From positions 247-64,246 of the forward strand of contig CAYFHS010000015.1 in NCBI GenBank assembly GCA_964342815.1: a stretch of 64,000 nucleotides of DNA, given 5' to 3'. The notes below the pieces were generated by a model. That model saw only the letters and a list, made by a program, of their open reading frames with translations. It made no database searches and was not told the DNA's origin. Source of the DNA: an uncultured archaeon (GTDB lineage Archaea > Thermoplasmatota > Penumbrarchaeia > JASLWR01). A program made the position numbers and the translations under genes. Below are positions 13,032 through 24,504 of this stretch, in pieces (within the stretch, counting starts at the first letter, position 1; every line of letters begins with the position of its first letter).

Positions 13032-14156
13032 TTGCCAGTGGATTATTATAAGTTATTGGAAATTGACCATGATGCGTCTCAGGCGGATGTAAAGAAAGCA
13101 TACCGGCGTCTGGCTAGGAAATACCACCCCGATGCCAACAAGGATGACCCCACGGCGGCGGACAAGTTCCGGAAGATCAAAGAGGCTTTTGACATTCTTT
13201 CCGATCCATTGGAAAGGGATAAATACGACCATTACGGACCAGCATACGGCGGTGGTGGCAGTCCGGAACCCCCTTCCAAATCTTCCTATGCTGCTCCCCC
13301 TCCACCCCCTACCTCCGAGGATGTCTTTTCTCCAGGACCCTATGATGACATACGCCAGGTTCCTCGACAGGGACCTCCACAATCAAGCGGTATGGGTCCC
13401 CAACCGGGTGCCGACCTCAGGTATGACCTGGAGATCACCTTCGAGGAGAGCATTTTCGGTCTCGAAACAGAGATATACGTTCCAATAATGTCAGAATGCA
13501 ACATCTGCCAGGGAACGGGCATACGCCCGGGAGCACCACAGGTACCTTGTCGATATTGCAGTGGAAGAGGGGAGGTTCGCCAGGAATCTTATGGAACCAT
13601 GGGTGGTTTCGTTATATGTGAAAACTGCCAGGGTACCGGTATAAGTCCGGAGAATCTATGTTATAACTGTCAAGGATCAGGAAGGAACCAGTCCCAGAGG
13701 TCTGTTTACGTCAAAGTACCTCCGGGAGTAGAGAACGGGGCTCGTCTGAGGATTCGAGGAATGGGCGAACCAGGATCTAGAGGAGGGCCACCGGGTGATC
13801 TTTACGTCATGATATACGTACTGGAACACGACCGGTTCGAGCGTCATGGTGACGAGATACTCTGTGAGACCACCGTCACCATTCTCCAGGCTGCATTGGG
13901 TGCGGAGATCGAGGTCCCTACAATCGACGGGAAGGCAAAGATGAAGATCCCTCCAGGGACACAGACTGGAACTATATTCCGTCTCAGAGGAAAAGGTGTT
14001 CCCAACATTCATACCGGGCAAAGAGGCGACCAACACGTAAAAGTGACAGTGGTGACCCCTAGCAAGCTCAGCAGGAACGGGAAGGAACTTCTTTGGAAAT
14101 TTGGTAAAGAGATCGGAGAAGACATGAGTTCTATATTGTGGAGAAAGAAGCGGTAA
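13032..14156 (+). CDS. dnaJ: Chaperone DnaJ (Hsp40), type I
   Basis: J domain DYYKLLEIDHDASQADVKKAYRRLARKYHPDANKDD. A Gly/Pro-rich linker follows. There are four CxxCxGxG repeats (CNICQGTG, CRYCSGRG, CENCQGTG, CYNCQGSG) and a C-terminal substrate-binding domain. The start is TTG at 13032 or GTG at 13038. No dnaK or grpE in the window. Confidence 0.9.
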   Translation: MPVDYYKLLEIDHDASQADVKKAYRRLARKYHPDANKDDPTAADKFRKIKEAFDILSDPLERDKYDHYGPAYGGGGSPEPPSKSSYAAPPPPPTSEDVFSPGPYDDIRQVPRQGPPQSSGMGPQPGADLRYDLEITFEESIFGLETEIYVPIMSECNICQGTGIRPGAPQVPCRYCSGRGEVRQESYGTMGGFVICENCQGTGISPENLCYNCQGSGRNQSQRSVYVKVPPGVENGARLRIRGMGEPGSRGGPPGDLYVMIYVLEHDRFERHGDEILCETTVTILQAALGAEIEVPTIDGKAKMKIPPGTQTGTIFRLRGKGVPNIHTGQRGDQHVKVTVVTPSKLSRNGKELLWKFGKEIGEDMSSILWRKKR

Positions 14157-14244
14157 CGGTCCGATTTTACATTAGCCGCAGACGGCTGCCTCAATGATTC
14201 CGTTTCTAAGCACCGTTTGTAAATTATTTTAGAGGTTGTTATTC

Positions 14245-15891
14245 ATGTCAAGAGAGATTTCAGCCCCTACCGGAAATAAGCTAACGTGCAAGAGCTGGCA
14301 GACCGAGGCTCCAATGAGAATGCTTATGAACAATCTCGATCCGGATGTTGCCCGAGATCCCCAGAATCTCATCGTGTACGGCGGCACTGGTAAAGCCGCA
14401 AGGAGCTGGGAATCATACGATGCCATAATCCGCTCACTGCGTGCTCTTGAAGGTAATGAGACACTGCTTGTCCAGAGTGGAAAACCCGTGGGAGTTTTCA
14501 AGACCAATCAATGGGCCCCAAGGGTTCTTATTGCCAACTCACTTTTGGTTCCCAAGTGGGCCACAATGAGTTATTTCAACGAGCTGGAGGACAAAGGCCT
14601 CATCATGTACGGTCAGATGACCGCGGGTTCGTGGATTTATATCGGTACCCAGGGTATTCTCCAAGGTACGTATGAAACCTTTGGTTCCTTGGCTAGGAGG
14701 CATTATTCAGGGGACCTGAAAGGGAAAATCGTGGCAACGGCGGGTCTCGGGGAAATGGGGGGAGCTCAGCCTTTAGCAGTGTCTCTGAACGGTGGTGTTT
14801 GTATTGCCGTGGAGGCAGACCCGGAGATGATCGACAGAAGACTTAGAACAAAATACCTGGATCAGCGCGTGGATGATCTAGATACTGCTCTGAAACTGGC
14901 CATGGAGTATAAGGAGAAAGGAGAGGGAAAATCCATTGGATTATTGGGAAATGCCGCGGAGGTATTTCCCGAACTTGTAAAAAAGAATTTTATCCCGGAT
15001 GTGCTAACTGATCAAACTTCGGCCCATGATCCGCTGAACGGATATATCCCAGCAGGTTATACTGTGCGGAAAGCAGCGGAACTACGCCAGGATAAACCTG
15101 AAAGATACCTATCATTGGCCATGGATTCAATATCTACCCATATACGAGCCATCCTTCAGCTAAAAGAAAGGGGAGCAATCGCCTTCGACTACGGAAACAA
15201 TATAAGGCAAATGGCCTATGATGGAGGTGTGAAGGATGCCTTTTCCTACCCCGGTTTTGTACCCGCCTATGTGCGACCCCTGTTCTGTGAAGGCAAGGGT
15301 CCATTCAGATGGGTGGCGCTCTCCGGTGATCCTGAAGATATATACCGTACGGATGAAGTAATTTTAAAACTATTCCCCGAGGATCTACATCTAAGAAGAT
15401 GGATCAAATTGGCTCACAGTTCCTTTGATTTCCAGGGATTACCAGCAAGGATATGCTGGCTTGGATATGGTGAGAGAGCCCGGGCCGGATTGGCATTCAA
15501 TGAGATGGTCCGGAACGGTACCGTATCTGCACCTATAGTGATCGGCAGAGACCATCTAGATTGCGGCTCGGTGGCTAGTCCAAACCGGGAGACCGAGGGA
15601 ATGCTGGACGGCAGTGATGCTATTGCGGACTGGCCGGTTCTCAATGCTATGTTGAACGTGGCCAGTGGTGCAACGTGGGTAAGCCTGCATCACGGCGGAG
15701 GTGTTGGTATTGGGTATTCCATACATGCTGGACAGGTGATCGTGGCAGACGGGACCGAACTAGCCGGGGAAAAATTGCTCCGGGTACTGACGAACGATCC
15801 GGGTACGGGTATAATGAGGCATGCGGATGCAGGTTATGTCACTGCCCGGGAAAACGCCATAAAACAGAATATAAAAATACCTATGTTATGA
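14245..15891 (+). CDS. hutU: Urocanate hydratase
   Basis: About 550 aa with [30 protein letters not shown]...[13 protein letters not shown]...[24 protein letters not shown]...MGGAQPLA..., a full-length urocanase pattern. The ATG at 14245 is preceded by AGAGG. Confidence 0.92.
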
Positions 15892-16060
15892 TGAACATAT
15901 TCAGATTGCTGATTTGTTCACACTCTGATACGGGCGACATTCCCCTAGATTATTTATTTTTACGATAGAAAGAACCGAAAAACGTTAAATTCCAAAACAA
16001 CTACAAGTTTTAGATATCATCAACTCTAAAATACTGGCAAAGAGGATAAGGTGATCGTAC

Positions 16061-16570
16061 ATGCCCAAGCTTCCCATGGATATATTGAAAAGAAGGGTTT
16101 CGCAGGAATTGGCCCTTGCCAAGAGAAAACTGAACCACATAATCGCTATCGAAGGCGGCGAGATCGAAGATTTCCCGGTCTCGCTTATGGTTACTTTAAT
16201 AAGCACCCCTGGCCCCGTCTGGAGGAAAGACCTGCTTTCTCACAAGAACACACATCAGTTCAGGGTCACAATAACCGATAGTTACCCATATGAAAAACCA
16301 ATCGTTAAATGGGAAAGCGAGATATTTCACCCTAACGTTAAAATGCCGAAGGATGGAGGTGACGTATGCACCCGATTGCTAAGCGGATGGGGTTTTCAGT
16401 CAAATTTGCTTTCTTTTATAAAAGGTATCGAATCTCTTCTCACAAATCCGAACCCGAAATCACCATGGGGAACTGACTCCTGTACCACCGCAGCCCAGTA
16501 TTTCAATACACATGAATATGAAACCCCAAGTGTGGGAGAGCAGGACAAAGGACCGCGAATAGTCCGGTAA
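16061..16570 (+). CDS. Ubiquitin-conjugating enzyme (UBC/E2)-fold protein with an HPN-Cys active-site motif
   Basis: FRVTITDSYPYEKPIVKWESEIFHPNVKMPKDGGDVCTRLLSGWGFQSNLLSFIKGIESLLTNPNPKSP lines up with the E2 core (YPxxPP...hHPNh....G.hCl.hL...W.P......hl..I..LL..PNP..P). The N-terminal helix is ILKRRVSQEL. AAGGTGAT lies upstream of the ATG. Confidence 0.75.
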   Translation: MPKLPMDILKRRVSQELALAKRKLNHIIAIEGGEIEDFPVSLMVTLISTPGPVWRKDLLSHKNTHQFRVTITDSYPYEKPIVKWESEIFHPNVKMPKDGGDVCTRLLSGWGFQSNLLSFIKGIESLLTNPNPKSPWGTDSCTTAAQYFNTHEYETPSVGEQDKGPRIVR

Positions 16571-16693
16571 CAATGTATTTAGGAGTAGATAGGAACAAAA
16601 ACAAAATATATGAAGAACCTATTTTTCCATCAGACTTTAAAGACGCTACGACGGAAAAGTTCTAAATGACAAAACAATATTGAGGTGAATAAA

Positions 16694-16837
16694 ATGCAAG
16701 GACGATGCATGAAGTGTAAGAAAATGGTAGATATCAAGGACGGAAAAGAGGTCGTTACGAAGAACAACACAAAGATGATGAAAGGCAAATGCCCCGGGTG
16801 TGGAACCACTGTTTGCAGGATACTGGGCAGAGCATAG
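16694..16837 (+). CDS. Small zinc-ribbon protein (47 aa), below the ORF-track size cutoff
   Basis: My hand translation is MQGRCMKCKKMVDIKDGKEVVTKNNTKMMKGKCPGCGTTVCRILGRA. It has two CxxC pairs about 25 aa apart. A strong GAGGTGA lies 6 nt upstream of the ATG. The overlapping minus-strand track ORFs have no protein-like features. Confidence 0.55.
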   Translation: MQGRCMKCKKMVDIKDGKEVVTKNNTKMMKGKCPGCGTTVCRILGRA

Positions 16838-20202: not shown

Positions 20203-23200
20203 ATGGGTGAGAAGATGAAAAGAATCAGAAAGTACGGTATTATCAGTTTATTAGTCATAATATTGCTTTTAGGAAATCATATCATGGGTATCGGAAAGAA
20301 CCTCGACATCAATGTAGTGGGTTCATCCGATTCAAATCATAACTCGAACTCGAGGGGGCCGGGAGCTGGAAATGCCAATTGGACATTGATTTCGGATTTC
20401 ACAATGGGTATGTATACGGGAATTGATGTAGGATTGGACAGCAAGCCTGAATTCGGAGATCTGGATAACGATGTCGACATGGACCTTATCGTTGGTCAAA
20501 GTGACGGGACATTGAATTATTTTCAAAACACCGGGAGTGCAAATCAGGCGGCATGGGCAGCTTCCGTTAAGCTGCAATCCGGCGGAAACAATATTAACCT
20601 TGGAGGTCCATGCGTCCCTGAATTGGTTGATCTGGACGATGATGGCGACCTCGATTTGGTAATTGGGGAGGGTTGGGGTGAGATGTCATTCTATAACAAC
20701 ACCGGCAACGTTAACAACCCAATATGGACCTATTGGGGAAAATTGAACCAGTCAAAAGTGGCTATCGATAAAGGTGGTTTTTGTGCCCCCTCTCTTGCGG
20801 ACCTGGATGGTGACGGGGATTTCGATTTAACAATAGGGGATTGGTTGGGCAGTTTGTTCTATTTTGAGAATACCGGTTCAGCGACCTATCCCACTTGGAA
20901 AGAAAATAATACTATGTACAACAATATCAATTTATTACCTAATAGTGTTTATGTCGTACCGGAGTTGGGTGACCTGGATGATGACGGTGATTTTGATCTC
21001 CTCGTCGGAGAAGATCATGGCTTGATGTTCTATTTCGAAAACATCGGGGACCCTTCCGAACCAAATTGGAGTAAAGAGGCAGAGATGTTTACGGATGTAA
21101 ATGTAACCACCTGGGCTGCACCGGCCCTTGCCGATCTCGACAATGACGGTGATCTGGACCTGACACTGGGAGAGAAAAACGGCACATTGGCTCTATACGA
21201 TAATGATATGATTTTTATTGATAGAATCCGTTTATTTTTCAGAATGGAGAACGGAGACGGTCCAAAGAAGAAAACCTGTTACGCAAAATACAAACCATAC
21301 AGCTTCAAGGTCACTGCCAGGAGTAGTTTCGGTCTGGGAGATATTAAGAGCGTAAAAATGATCCTGGACAATGAAGGTGAGCGCTTGGAGTACTTATGGA
21401 CCAACGCGTCCCAGAATTTCACCGAGGTCCGCGACCCAAACGATTATGCAGAGATCGTTAGTACCTCTATGAACGGAACCAACGATTCGGTCAGAATGTG
21501 GACCTTCAGATTCAAGATAATTTTCAATTGGACCTACCCTGATGAAAACAATCACACGGTTCGAATATTTTGTGACGGATACAGTCCGCTGAGTGCATGG
21601 TATAATCGGTCCAATGCATACCGGGTAGAGAACGACCTCGTATTAAGGGGTGATCTGGCTGTTGAGGGCGAAAAACAGGGGAACCTTTCATCGGGAGATC
21701 GGGTCAGAAAAGGCGAGAACATCACGTGGAGCGGAGTAAAGGTGGTATATGAAAACACCACAAACATTTATCCTCTTGATTCGGAGTTCAATGTCACCAT
21801 AAGCGACGATGATGGGGATAAATGGATCAATTCCTCAAGCTCTGGAAAGAACATTTCAATTCGTACCACTGCCGACCTGGATTCTGATAACACTGATACC
21901 CACAGGATCAATATTACGGACGTTCCCCCTGCGTGTGTAAATAATAGTATGAAATTTACATTGAAAGTAGATTGCGACAATGTAACGTTTTCCGATCCTT
22001 CACCGGATGAGGATGCTTGGCAGACCTCTCTCGATCCGGAGTGCAGTATCAGAGTAATGGATGTGGGAGGTTCGGAGGTTAACGCTTCTTCCATCGATTA
22101 CAGTTTTTCAACAGACGAAGGAAACACCTGGTCCGATTGGACGAACGCCGGGGAAACCGTAGATAATTCGAGCATTGAGAGTTCGGGAACACCAACGTTT
22201 TTGGAGGGGAGGGGGAATCTGATCAAATGGCGTGCAATGGATACAGTGGGGAACGAATATAATCAATCGGGTAATAATAAAATCATAATAGACATAAGCA
22301 ACGTTACATTCGAGGATCCCTCACCAAATGCCACAGTTGTATTAAATGAAACAAATATTGAGGTTGGAATCACGGTACTGGACGAACTTAGCGGGGTGGA
22401 CGCCGCCAGTATTGAATATATGATATCCACCGACAACAGGAGCACCTGGAGTGCCTGGATAGCCGCACCCGGAACGAACGACAGTACAATAATAAATGTT
22501 ACCGTCTCCCGTATATTCGTTAACGGCACCGGCAATTACATAAAGTGGCGAGCCTCGGACGTGGCGGGAAACGGTCCATGGGAATCAGACGAATATCAGA
22601 TAAAAATAGATACCAGTATTCCGGAAATCCCGAATACAGCCCCTGAAGTCTCACTGGTGTCACCGGGTGATAACGACATCATCGCATCGGAAAAACCAGT
22701 TTTAAGCTGGAATTGTACCGATCCCGATGTCGACGTAATATACTATAATGTATATCTTGGAACCAATGAATCAAAAGTGTTGGGAAAAGCCCCCAGTGTG
22801 TTGGTATCTAATTCACAGCAGAATACGAACTTTTTTCCCGCTGCTCCGTTATCGGACGATACTACCTATTATTGGACGGTTATACCCAATGATGGTACCG
22901 TTGACGGGCTCTGTATTTCCGGAGTTTGGACTTTCAGAATTGTCCTCCCGGAGGTAATACCCGCCATTACGCTGCAAAAACCCTTGGATCATGATGTAAT
23001 CAATGAAGAAAACGTGAAACTGGAATGGAATGTCACTTATAACGGTACCGATGTTATTACCTATGACGTTTATCTCGATAAGGTGGTAAATCCGTCAATC
23101 CTTATTTCCGAAAACCTATCATCGAACAGCCTTTCAGTTGAAGATCTGGACGACGACACTACCTATTACTGGAAAGTGGCGGTGAATGTGGGAGATGAAA

Positions 23201-24504
23201 AAACAGCAGTAGTATCTGAAATTCACAGTTTTAAAATAGATCTCAGCTTCGTGCCGATTTACGGGGTCAACCTCACCCTCGAAAAGAATGAAATATCCAT
23301 GGAACAGGGTGAAACTGTCAACCTCAGTATAACCGTTGCCAACCTGGGAAATACCATTGATGAATTTATTTTGTCGCTGGTACCGGGTCCCCTTGGTGAG
23401 GACGTTATCCTGGAGAATGAGGGTGATCTAATACTGATAGGGGCAAATAAATCCTTCCTGGGTAAAATAACTTTGAGGGTGGGAACTCATCAGGCTGCCG
23501 GTGATTATACAGTAAAGATATCCGTAAAATCCAGTGGAGATATATCCGGGAATACGATGGTTGAAAGAACATTGGTGGTAAAAGTAATAAATACAAGCGG
23601 GGATGACGACACAGATGACGATGTCGATGATGATACTGACGACGATATCGAGGATGATACGGACGATGACACCGAGATTGACGACACTGATGGAAGGGAC
23701 ACGACCGGTGAAAAGAGCTTTCTGGAGGGATCGTTCTTCATAATATTGATGGTGGGATTATTCATTCTGATCGTGGTGATCGTACTGATGATAATAATGC
23801 GAAGAAAAAAGAAAGATATATCGGATGATGAAACTACCGAACTGCAAAAAACCGAAACTCCCCATGAAGAATTGCCCGTGATGGTCGTTAAAGAGCCAAT
23901 TACTGAAGACACCCATAGAGAGCTCGGGGGAATAGAGGAGGAAACGAATCAAATCCCCGGCGGTGTCGTCGCGGAATATCCGATCGACGAATCAACCGCC
24001 CCTGAGTGCACAAAATGCGGGCGCAGGTCCGATTATTACGAGGAATATGACTGTTACTGGTGCGAAAACTGCCAGGAATATGTGGATGAAAACGTAACCA
24101 CCGGGGATGAAATTGAATTTGAAGATACCTTGGTAAAAGAGGAGAACATCACTACCGAAGAGGAGCCAAGCACCGATAAAGTAATAGATGAAAGCGAGTT
24201 ATTGGACACTGACGCCGATAAATCCGAACCGGGGGGAAATAGTGCTGGAAATGAAATGAATGATGAAAAAAAGAATATGGAAGCCGATGTCGATGCATCC
24301 GAAACCGAAACTAAGGAAAAAAGTTCTGAAAATGAAGTCAATGATGAAACGGAAATAATAGAAATCGATAACGAGGCATCAGCAGCCGAGATGAATGAAA
24401 AAAGTTCCGAAAATGAAATGGATGATATAACAGAAGTTAATGAAGCCGAAGATGGTACGGATGAAGCTTGCATTACCGGTGAGAGTGCATCGGAAGAAGA
24501 ATAA
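20203..24504 (+). CDS. Type-I membrane surface protein: FG-GAP/VCBS beta-propeller, Ig/FN3-like domains, TM segment, cytoplasmic zinc ribbon and acidic tail
   Basis: Signal-like N-terminus. At least 5 FG-GAP/VCBS repeats (DLDNDVDMDLIVGQSDGTLNYFQNTG, DLDDDGDLDLVIGEGWGEMSFYNNTG, DLDGDGDFDLTIGDWLGSLFYFENTG, and others). Repeated beta-sandwich modules follow. An Asp-rich stretch precedes the TM segment FFIILMVGLFILIVVIVLMIIM and RRKKKD. The tail has CTKCGRRSDYYEEYDCYWCENCQEY and Glu/Asn-rich repeats. Confidence 0.75.
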   Translation: MGEKMKRIRKYGIISLLVIILLLGNHIMGIGKNLDINVVGSSDSNHNSNSRGPGAGNANWTLISDFTMGMYTGIDVGLDSKPEFGDLDNDVDMDLIVGQSDGTLNYFQNTGSANQAAWAASVKLQSGGNNINLGGPCVPELVDLDDDGDLDLVIGEGWGEMSFYNNTGNVNNPIWTYWGKLNQSKVAIDKGGFCAPSLADLDGDGDFDLTIGDWLGSLFYFENTGSATYPTWKENNTMYNNINLLPNSVYVVPELGDLDDDGDFDLLVGEDHGLMFYFENIGDPSEPNWSKEAEMFTDVNVTTWAAPALADLDNDGDLDLTLGEKNGTLALYDNDMIFIDRIRLFFRMENGDGPKKKTCYAKYKPYSFKVTARSSFGLGDIKSVKMILDNEGERLEYLWTNASQNFTEVRDPNDYAEIVSTSMNGTNDSVRMWTFRFKIIFNWTYPDENNHTVRIFCDGYSPLSAWYNRSNAYRVENDLVLRGDLAVEGEKQGNLSSGDRVRKGENITWSGVKVVYENTTNIYPLDSEFNVTISDDDGDKWINSSSSGKNISIRTTADLDSDNTDTHRINITDVPPACVNNSMKFTLKVDCDNVTFSDPSPDEDAWQTSLDPECSIRVMDVGGSEVNASSIDYSFSTDEGNTWSDWTNAGETVDNSSIESSGTPTFLEGRGNLIKWRAMDTVGNEYNQSGNNKIIIDISNVTFEDPSPNATVVLNETNIEVGITVLDELSGVDAASIEYMISTDNRSTWSAWIAAPGTNDSTIINVTVSRIFVNGTGNYIKWRASDVAGNGPWESDEYQIKIDTSIPEIPNTAPEVSLVSPGDNDIIASEKPVLSWNCTDPDVDVIYYNVYLGTNESKVLGKAPSVLVSNSQQNTNFFPAAPLSDDTTYYWTVIPNDGTVDGLCISGVWTFRIVLPEVIPAITLQKPLDHDVINEENVKLEWNVTYNGTDVITYDVYLDKVVNPSILISENLSSNSLSVEDLDDDTTYYWKVAVNVGDEKTAVVSEIHSFKIDLSFVPIYGVNLTLEKNEISMEQGETVNLSITVANLGNTIDEFILSLVPGPLGEDVILENEGDLILIGANKSFLGKITLRVGTHQAAGDYTVKISVKSSGDISGNTMVERTLVVKVINTSGDDDTDDDVDDDTDDDIEDDTDDDTEIDDTDGRDTTGEKSFLEGSFFIILMVGLFILIVVIVLMIIMRRKKKDISDDETTELQKTETPHEELPVMVVKEPITEDTHRELGGIEEETNQIPGGVVAEYPIDESTAPECTKCGRRSDYYEEYDCYWCENCQEYVDENVTTGDEIEFEDTLVKEENITTEEEPSTDKVIDESELLDTDADKSEPGGNSAGNEMNDEKKNMEADVDASETETKEKSSENEVNDETEIIEIDNEASAAEMNEKSSENEMDDITEVNEAEDGTDEACITGESASEEE
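23602..23692 (+). repeat. Imperfect GAY-rich tandem codon repeat encoding an Asp/Thr acidic stalk
   Basis: gatgacgacacagatgacgatgtcgatgatgatactgacgacgatatcgaggatgatacggacgatgacacc... encodes DDDTDDDVDDDTDDDIEDDTDDDTEIDDTD, immediately before the TM segment. Confidence 0.6.

Follow-up and report, generated by a model that had tools for sequence, protein, structure and literature searches.

A solitary E2 gene in a Thermoplasmatota genome probably belongs to a scattered ubiquitin-like conjugation system

To our knowledge, Caldiarchaeum is the only archaeon in which ubiquitylation of the eukaryotic type has been examined biochemically; otherwise the topic is raised mainly for Asgard archaea. The ubiquitin operons of Caldiarchaeum subterraneum (Aigarchaeota) and of Asgard archaea, which have been described and partly reconstituted, encode ubiquitin (Ub), an E1-like protein, an E2-like protein, a small RING finger protein and an Rpn11-like JAMM protein (PMC3082918, PMC5654768, PMC6043591). 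Fuchs et al. 2018 also mention a 'JAMM-3' group whose genes share operons with homologues of Ub, E1 and E2 but with no E3, RING proteins being added only in Caldiarchaeum and Asgard archaea (PMC6043591). A cassette of E1 (at some loci missing), ubiquitin-like protein (Ubl), E2 and JAMM in the phylum Thermoplasmatota probably corresponds to this group. Apart from a passing mention as an E3-less operon group (PMC6043591), our literature search found no description of the Thermoplasmatota system. In the survey of Grau-Bove et al., RING domains are recorded for one marine group II euryarchaeote. Here we analyzed a window of 64,000 nucleotides, positions 247-64246 of the 87.8-kb contig C15, from the metagenome-assembled genome (MAG) of an uncultured thermoplasmatote (G000 in our genome set). 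The window contains a gene for a ubiquitin-conjugating enzyme, which we call E2-A, that stands apart from any gene of such a cassette. We put at roughly 0.8 the probability that E2-A is one of two E2 paralogues in a scattered Thermoplasmatota ubiquitin-like conjugation system, and that it is a catalytically competent copy that was duplicated and relocated.

16061..16570, plus strand: E2-A, the solitary paralogue, an E2 of 169 residues with the UBC (ubiquitin-conjugating) fold; from Pfam, PDB alignment, AlphaFold2, Foldseek, family alignment, the ratio of nonsynonymous to synonymous substitution rates (dN/dS) and a tree.
Key residues of E2-A: HPN at 90-92, catalytic Cys103 (in DVCTRLL), W110 and NPNPKSP at 129-135; from alignment to solved E2s.

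By sequence and by structure model, E2-A is a genuine eukaryote-type E2 with an intact HPN...Cys active site. The reading frame starts with ATG, 5 nt after a GGTGAT, and its product matched Pfam UQ_con (PF00179) at 8.7e-15 and 55 bits (cut-off 27), a match that the whole-genome scan returned as well. The best PDB sequence match was UBE2A/Rad6 (phmmer, 1.3e-10), in which the HPN motifs coincide, Cys103 falls on the catalytic Cys (GSICLDIL), W110 on the conserved Trp and NPNPKSP on EPNPNSP. UBE2D2 aligned over its full length, N-terminal helix included, pairing Y77 with F62, C103 with C85, W110 with W93 and F112 with P95; the F62 and P95 positions mark the two loops of eukaryotic E2s that touch RING domains. 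In a family alignment of 36 sequences, H90, P91, N92, C103, W110, P130, N131 and P132 were invariant. The closest public records are those of Thermoplasmatota MAGs, among them the 95%-identical E2 of 'Thermoplasmatota archaeon ETNP2_MAG_1'. A noncatalytic variant of the UEV/RWD kind was considered and rejected: the catalytic Cys is present and invariant, and the UEV profile reached only E = 0.085 and 13 bits.

An AlphaFold2 model based on the 36-sequence alignment had a predicted local distance difference test score (pLDDT) of 87.6 and a predicted template modelling (TM) score of 0.81, and was used in place of a model from the single sequence, which we discarded (pLDDT 44.9). It has a helix at residues 6-23, strands between 27 and 84, and helices at 116-128 and 139-150, giving the N-terminal helix, four-stranded antiparallel sheet and following helices of the UBC fold. 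Beyond residue 150 the model is of low confidence, and the last canonical UBC helix is not confidently modelled. When the model was compared with the PDB using Foldseek, the top 50 matches were all E2s (TM-scores 0.53-0.74), led by the eukaryotic E2s UBE2E1, Ubc9, UbcH5 and Ubc12 at 0.6-0.7 across 143-164 columns. An earlier note on this DNA had described a 169-residue UBC/E2-fold protein with an HPN...Cys motif and had placed its catalytic Cys in DVCTRLL. The UQ_con match, the PDB alignment, the invariance across the family and the AlphaFold2/Foldseek comparison all bear this out: Cys103 falls on the active-site Cys of both UBE2A and UBE2D2, and where the note had named a non-E2 fold as the contrary outcome, only E2s were among the top 50.

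The gene is under strong constraint. Measured against its 95%-identical orthologue in a sister species (locus L029), E2-A has a dN/dS of 0.026 at a dS of ~1. We predict from the sequence that E2-A is catalytically competent and forms a thioester at Cys103. Only four positions are fixed in the clade of solitary E2s to which E2-A belongs yet differ from the residue that 70% or more of other E2s have there; Ala20 (elsewhere Cys) and Lys94 (elsewhere Met) are the two that are specific to the E2-A clade. The idea that clade-specific residues changed the function of E2-A was dropped, since neither these two nor the other two give any such sign. Compared with eukaryotic class I E2s (UBE2A/Rad6, UBE2D, UBE2E1), the entire UBC core aligns, including the N-terminal helix, and the loop-4 aromatic residue (Y77/F62), HPN, the catalytic Cys, the Trp and the PNPxSP motif are shared; a Ser occupies the position of Rad6 S120 and UbcH5 D117. 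E2-A differs from these enzymes by a 3-residue insertion between HPN and Cys, by W-x-F instead of W-S-P-A in loop 7 and by a last helix that is missing or disordered, and it has a second Cys (C141) and an N-terminal MPKLP motif that are conserved only in its archaeal family.

Whole-genome scans with Pfam models and with hidden Markov models (HMMs) built from related operons located the remaining components on other contigs:

C6:2529-2771: Ubl of 80 residues ending in DPEGGC, followed by a JAMM protein of 292 residues.
C6:2958-3836: this 292-residue JAMM protein, with an N-terminal extension of ~125 residues.
C22:10460-11284: compact E1 of 274 residues with a ThiF domain.
C48:9695-10210: E2-B, the second E2, 53% identical to E2-A and directly followed by a JAMM protein of 324 residues.
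C48:8551-9525: this 324-residue JAMM protein, with a long acidic linker and C-terminal hydrophobic helices.

The Ubl matched general models poorly (Pfam ubiquitin 0.0025; YukD also weak) and the UBL domains of Rad23 and ubiquilin in the PDB at 2e-3; the HMM of operon Ubls recognized it at 2e-38. The E1 is a bare ThiF domain, with the Pfam match covering residues 32-269 of 274 and the conserved Cys of FSCTG as the sole thioester candidate. Its nearest PDB entries were the adenylation domains of UBA1, SAE2, UBA7 and UBA3 (~1e-28), with ThiF/MoeB at 1e-18 to 1e-17. Both JAMM proteins carry HSHPG...S..D and matched Pfam JAB at 4e-13 and 3e-10; the best JAMM matches in the PDB were Rpn11 (5e-15) and the Caldiarchaeum Rpn11-like protein (3e-12). 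Because of its C-terminal hydrophobic helices, the JAMM protein linked to E2-B is probably membrane-anchored. The same genome also encodes a 352-residue MoeB-like E1 on C17 and two ThiS/MoaD-type proteins, which would together form an ordinary sulfur-carrier set.

These findings bear on the two explanations that the earlier note had offered for what it called an orphan E2. The partners are indeed encoded elsewhere, in the form of an E1, a Ubl, two JAMM proteins and a second E2, and nothing supports a different use of the E2 fold. 'Orphan' describes the gene correctly on its own contig and fails for the genome as a whole. The note had reported no E1, Ubl or JAMM gene nearby; family-specific HMMs match only the E2 on C15, so this local observation was right and extends to the entire contig.

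A further protein with a Ubl domain came up in the scans. C2:108451-109953 encodes 500 residues with an N-terminal Ubl domain (operon-Ubl HMM 3e-8; Rad60-SLD 9e-4) that lacks a C-terminal GG, followed by zinc ribbons and then a long, acidic stretch of low complexity. The protein could serve as a UBL-domain adaptor rather than as a modifier.

To place E2-A among its relatives, one genome per species was scanned, which gave >454 loci, and the best 80 were fetched and annotated with the family HMMs. All 80 came from Thermoplasmatota or from Thermoplasmata-like MAGs under older names. An (E1)-Ubl-E2-JAMM operon is present in 62 of them, and so the premise that prokaryotic E2s sit in operons, from which the earlier note had started, holds in this lineage. 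Counting 83 E2 genes (the 80 loci plus the two of our genome), 41 lie in E1-Ubl-E2-JAMM, 21 in Ubl-E2-JAMM, 9 in E2-JAMM and 1 in Ubl-E2 arrangements, and 11 stand alone. Genes of a cassette share one strand, are mostly separated by between a few and a few tens of bases, and encode a Ubl that ends at GG or one residue beyond. The E2 itself was found in 94 of 401 sampled genomes of the phylum and in 53 of 162 genera, mostly in one copy.

E2-A is 46-64% identical to operon E2s. In a maximum-likelihood tree it forms a clade of solitary E2s with its orthologues at L029, L015 and L016 (95, 82 and 76% identical; support 100/97), and a branch with support 99/94 unites it with the E2-B/JAMM clade and a small number of other rearranged loci. 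The position of the solitary clade among operon E2s indicates that E2-A is a family-specific duplicate of an operon E2. All four genomes of the family have two E2s, one Ubl and one E1 on separate contigs; in our genome and its three family relatives the genes of the system occupy four separate contigs and not one operon. Since the scattered layout recurs in 4/4 family genomes, the break-up is ancestral to the family and not an artefact of assembly. Two species whose E2s differ at a dS of ~1 have exactly the same Ubl (100% identity), and in the other two genera its identity is 87-96%, which recalls the extreme conservation of ubiquitin itself.

Compared with the Caldiarchaeum and Asgard operons, the system has the same kind of eukaryote-type UBC E2, in which HPN and the catalytic Cys are present, a modifier of ubiquitin fold whose C-terminal GG precedes a short pro-peptide, an Rpn11-like JAMM protein, an E1 that resembles eukaryotic E1s more than ThiF, and putative RING-superfamily domains encoded in the genome. 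It differs in belonging to Thermoplasmatota and not to TACK or Asgard archaea, in its E1 of just 274 residues that lacks a ubiquitin-fold domain and a separate Cys domain, and in having its genes spread over four loci with E2 and JAMM duplicated. The candidate E3s differ too: a small soluble RING protein from the operon there, and here C4HC3 domains on giant single-pass proteins or, in small genomes, on small transmembrane proteins. With the Thermoplasmatota cassette it shares the same four protein families, and E2-A nests among the cassette E2s, whereas the cassette is split here into Ubl plus JAMM, E1, E2-B plus JAMM, and E2-A as an extra solitary copy.

These RING-like domains are C4HC3 fingers of which the genome has at least 20 copies. 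A zf-RING_2 scan gave 26 matches in this genome and weak matches in 4 of 14 control genomes, the best match here reaching 27.9 bits in the whole-genome scan (cut-off 27.3). The finger motif, C-x-I-C-x(11-13)-C-x-C-G-x2-[YF]-H-x2-C-x(6-7)-C-P-x-C, has the C4HC3 cross-brace pattern of the RING-CH/PHD kind, and its Ile and Pro lie at what we take to be the positions that touch E2s in canonical RINGs. Most fingers are found 250-450 residues past a single transmembrane helix, in proteins of 700-2,700 residues that start with a signal or anchor helix. This position suggests that the fingers lie on the cytoplasmic tails of giant surface proteins, which carry one to three fingers each. A much smaller finger-bearing candidate, of 140 residues, is encoded at C6:67565-67984. 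Five examples from this genome (G000) are:

C25:49044-55016: RING-like giant protein.
C1:288667-293913: RING-like giant protein.
C2:262891-269019: RING-like giant protein.
C7:72502-78543: RING-like giant protein.
C24:31030-35142: RING-like giant protein.

We examined how the finger is distributed relative to the E2. A finger profile found the domain in 113 of the 401 genomes: 84 have both E2 and finger, 10 only the E2, 29 only the finger and 278 neither, an odds ratio of 80 that takes no account of phylogeny. In one genus (g20), six genomes contain E2 and finger together and the other two lack both, and most mismatches fall in families whose majority holds both. Copy numbers follow the same trend: among ten genomes that encode at least two E2s, nine have from 5 to at least 17 fingers, and genomes with one E2 mostly have one finger. 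In four genomes from two other families, a gene of ~3,100-3,200 codons that ends in a finger lies directly upstream of Ubl-E2-JAMM or E2-JAMM. In small Methanomassiliicoccales-like genomes (L105 = G244:C1:277500-282500, L106 and L107), the single finger belongs to a membrane protein of 172-244 residues with an N-terminal transmembrane helix, the RING and then zinc ribbons, encoded at a fixed site between a heterodisulfide-reductase-like gene and genes for a Pop5-like protein and a proteasome alpha subunit. The RING-like tails are probable E3 ligases in our reading of these sequences, and the co-occurrence of RING and E2 across the phylum argues against calling the Thermoplasmatota system E3-less.

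Several other features of these proteins deserve mention. A number of the giant-protein tails share a conserved domain (IVGID..FxISDIFLIYxDGRL...) that looks roadblock/LC7-like by eye. Of two loci with unusual fusions, C23:5354-6271 and C1:270515-271579, one encodes a CDP-alcohol phosphatidyltransferase fused to a C-terminal RING-like finger and the other a degenerate finger (His to Asn) with a C-terminal J domain (Pfam DnaJ 4e-15). A second module, the zinc ribbon C-x2-C-x(11-12)-[YFW]WC-x2-C-x2-Y, gave 26 regular-expression matches in 23 open reading frames of the genome. It lies mostly near the C-terminus of large surface proteins, including a 1,433-residue FG-GAP surface protein of the window (20203-24504, 3.6 kb downstream of E2-A; ribbon near residue 1270); it is also present in the C2 Ubl-domain protein and four times in a protein of 398 residues (C2:121376-122569).

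The surroundings of E2-A in the window, all on the same strand, are as follows:

13032..14156, plus strand: full-length DnaJ paralogue (J domain, CXXCXGXG zinc finger, C-terminal domain); from Pfam and orthologous loci.
14236..15891, plus strand: urocanase gene hutU; from urocanase Pfam domains in the orthologous locus L008.
16008..16060, plus strand: putative E2-A promoter and leader; read from sequence and conservation.
16571..16693, plus strand: spacer between E2-A and the zinc-ribbon gene; from comparison of the window with L029 and L015.
16694..16837, plus strand: gene for a C4 zinc ribbon of 47 residues, DUF5679; from Pfam (2.7e-11), dN/dS and single-copy status.

The gene immediately upstream is hutU, as the earlier note had said. 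The order RibD_C - Mut7-C - DnaJ - (hutU) - E2 is kept across three genera (L008, L011), with hutU between DnaJ and E2 in two of the three genera of the family and missing at that position in L011. DnaJ lies upstream of E2-A throughout the family, and a canonical dnaK-dnaJ pair is encoded elsewhere, on C2. From this family-level synteny a functional link between E2-A and DnaJ is speculation. At sites that include C2:287390-289527 and C13:99380-99856, the genome has two DnaK genes, the dnaK-dnaJ pair on C2 and about eight further J-domain matches.

E2-A is probably transcribed on its own. A T-rich tract (15950-15962) follows the hutU stop codon, a TATA-like TTTTAGATAT lies at 16008-16017 and a Shine-Dalgarno GGTGAT at 16050-16055. 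The block 16008-16060 is conserved in L029, and a similar TA-rich box with the ATACTGGC motif is kept in L016, where DnaJ and not hutU precedes the E2. Retention of these elements with either gene upstream suggests that E2-A has its own promoter. In the spacer downstream, a TATA-like AAAATATAT (16603-16611), a T5 tract (16622-16626) and GAGGTGA (16682-16688) follow one another, of which the T5 tract is a possible archaeal terminator and AAAATATAT a possible promoter element. The first ~60 nt past the E2-A stop codon (16571-16630) are near-identical in L029 despite saturated synonymous sites on either side (dS ~1); this block could be a terminator, a promoter or a small RNA element. These promoter and terminator readings come from inspection and conservation, as a sigma-70/hairpin scan is uninformative for an archaeon and was left unused.

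The neighbor downstream raises the alternative that E2-A and DUF5679 form a dedicated two-gene module, with the ribbon as a minimal E3-like adaptor or as a substrate. The small gene itself, which the earlier note had pointed out together with its GAGGTGA ribosome-binding site, is real: the site lies 5 nt before the start codon, the product matches DUF5679, and its dN/dS is 0.007-0.08. The two genes share a strand and lie 124 nt from each other, and strong purifying selection acts on each of them; DUF5679 is single-copy in this genome, and the ribbon has a very weak similarity to an IBR half-RING (E = 0.099). Their adjacency is kept in G000, G077 and G170, but the ribbon is not beside the E2 in G083, of the same family, nor in the 76%-identical orthologous locus L011, so that the pair, whose co-occurrence the note had proposed to check, is found in only two of three genera. 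DUF5679 occurs in 109 of the 401 genomes and does not track the E2: 23 genomes have both, 71 only the E2, 86 only DUF5679 and 221 neither (odds ratio 0.83, p = 0.6). No operon-type locus has a zinc ribbon within the cassette, and the T5 tract and TATA-like box of the spacer hint at separate transcripts. We consider a dedicated module unlikely. Given adjacency in two of three genera and no co-occurrence across the phylum, we take the ribbon for an incidental neighbor, probably unrelated to the ubiquitin-like system. Literature searches aimed at DUF5679 or at Methanomassiliicoccales brought up no relevant description. In the sister species (G077), an open reading frame of 792 residues (C83:155-802) has four tandem DUF5679 repeats, besides the small single-domain gene beside the E2.

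E2-A might also have left the pathway, serving as a UEV-like binder or transferring a ThiS/MoaD-type (SAMP-like) modifier charged by the MoeB-like E1. Its gene is unlinked from all pathway genes, the proteins for such a route are present (the MoeB-like E1 on C17 and the two ThiS/MoaD-type proteins) and there is the weak UEV match (0.085). The Haloferax SAMP/UbaA/HvJAMM1 system is likewise archaeal, with a beta-grasp modifier, a ThiF-family E1 and removal by a JAMM protein, and the MoeB-like E1 and ThiS/MoaD-type proteins here could form a system of that sort. Sampylation in Haloferax, as is generally known, needs no E2, whereas a true E2 is present here and the likely Ubl is of ubiquitin type and not MoaD/ThiS. 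The HPN, Cys103, W110 and NPNP motifs are as invariant in the solitary clade as in operon E2s, just four positions are fixed differently in the clade (two of them, Ala20 and Lys94, specific to the E2-A clade), and dN/dS is low (0.026); departure from the pathway therefore seems quite improbable. Least credible of all is a part in anti-virus defence, as played by Bil, Bub or CBASS-Cap2. These bacterial systems, the type II CBASS (Cap2/Cap3) among them, follow the same logic of E1, E2, Ubl and JAMM (bioRxiv 10.1101/2023.09.26.559546), and the E1 weakly matches the PADLOC 'E1-E2' models through its ThiF domain (1e-12). PADLOC gave no match for the E2, the Ubl or the zinc ribbon, however, and on these grounds we reject the defence reading. 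Moreover, E2-A matches the eukaryote-type UQ_con, with no Prok-E2 family reported; its neighbourhood of housekeeping genes (RibD_C, Mut7-C, DnaJ) is conserved in three genera; and the cassette, present in 53 of 162 genera and mostly single-copy, shows no sign of mobility, unlike a mobile defence island.

We therefore favor E2-A as a working, relocated E2 of the scattered system, a reading directly supported by the fold, the catalytic residues, the purifying selection on the gene, the partner genes found and their arrangement, the phylogeny, and RING co-occurrence and operon linkage. We infer the biochemical steps, the transcription units and which RING-like proteins E2-A would pair with. In the proposed pathway, the Ubl encoded on C6, which ends in GGC, would be trimmed to Gly-Gly by the adjacent Rpn11-like JAMM protein. 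The compact E1 on C22 would then adenylate the Ubl and hold it as a thioester on the Cys of FSCTG before passing it on to an E2, either at Cys103 of E2-A or at the matching Cys of E2-B. From there the Ubl would be moved to lysines of target proteins, probably aided by the C4HC3 RING-like domains, most of which are predicted on giant-protein cytoplasmic tails, and the mark would be reversed by the two JAMM proteins, one of them putatively membrane-anchored. As to origin, the operon E2 was duplicated within the family and the copy moved downstream of an extra DnaJ gene. More tentatively, and in our estimate less likely than not, the system may be an expanded Ubl network outside TACK and Asgard archaea, comprising one very highly conserved Ubl, a minimal E1, two specialised E2s, two JAMM proteins (one of them membrane-anchored) and about twenty RING-tailed, receptor-like single-pass E3s, in which E2-A, kept next to the extra DnaJ, may be dedicated to a subset of the ligases or to chaperone-linked quality control.

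Several points weigh against this interpretation. The genome is a MAG of 4.35 Mb in 116 contigs, 88.9% complete and with 3% contamination. The E1 has neither a ubiquitin-fold domain (UFD) nor a separate catalytic Cys domain, and 274 residues leave no room for them. When proteins were scanned directly, the fingers reached at most 24.6 bits with zf-RING_2 and were also below threshold with Prok-RING_1, and the odds ratio for E2 and finger may in part reflect shared ancestry. Four families (f3, f28, f36 and f42) have the finger without an E2, indicating that the finger need not act only with the E2, and in our own genome no RING-like gene adjoins E2-A or any other gene of the ubiquitin-like system. 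Finally, the literature search found no biochemistry for any member of the Thermoplasmatota system.

What sets this system apart from the described kind is its scattered layout, its duplicated E2 and its expansion of membrane-anchored RING-like proteins. It indicates that a ubiquitin-like system can become dispersed and acquire a second E2 while constraint is maintained. Across the phylum, RING-like domains track the E2 and scale with its copy number, and many are predicted to form part of the cytoplasmic tail of a giant surface protein. Should these domains be ligases, early E2-E3 pairing and the history of membrane-anchored RINGs would become testable in a euryarchaeal lineage. If the tentative network of two specialised E2s and some twenty RING-tailed E3s proves true, it would be a prokaryotic case of an E2/E3 diversification thought to be eukaryotic, and the supposedly 'E3-less' Thermoplasmatota cassette would have an unlinked RING partner almost everywhere. 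In practice, annotators of these genomes should not take an E2 gene that stands alone as evidence for a new use of the fold.

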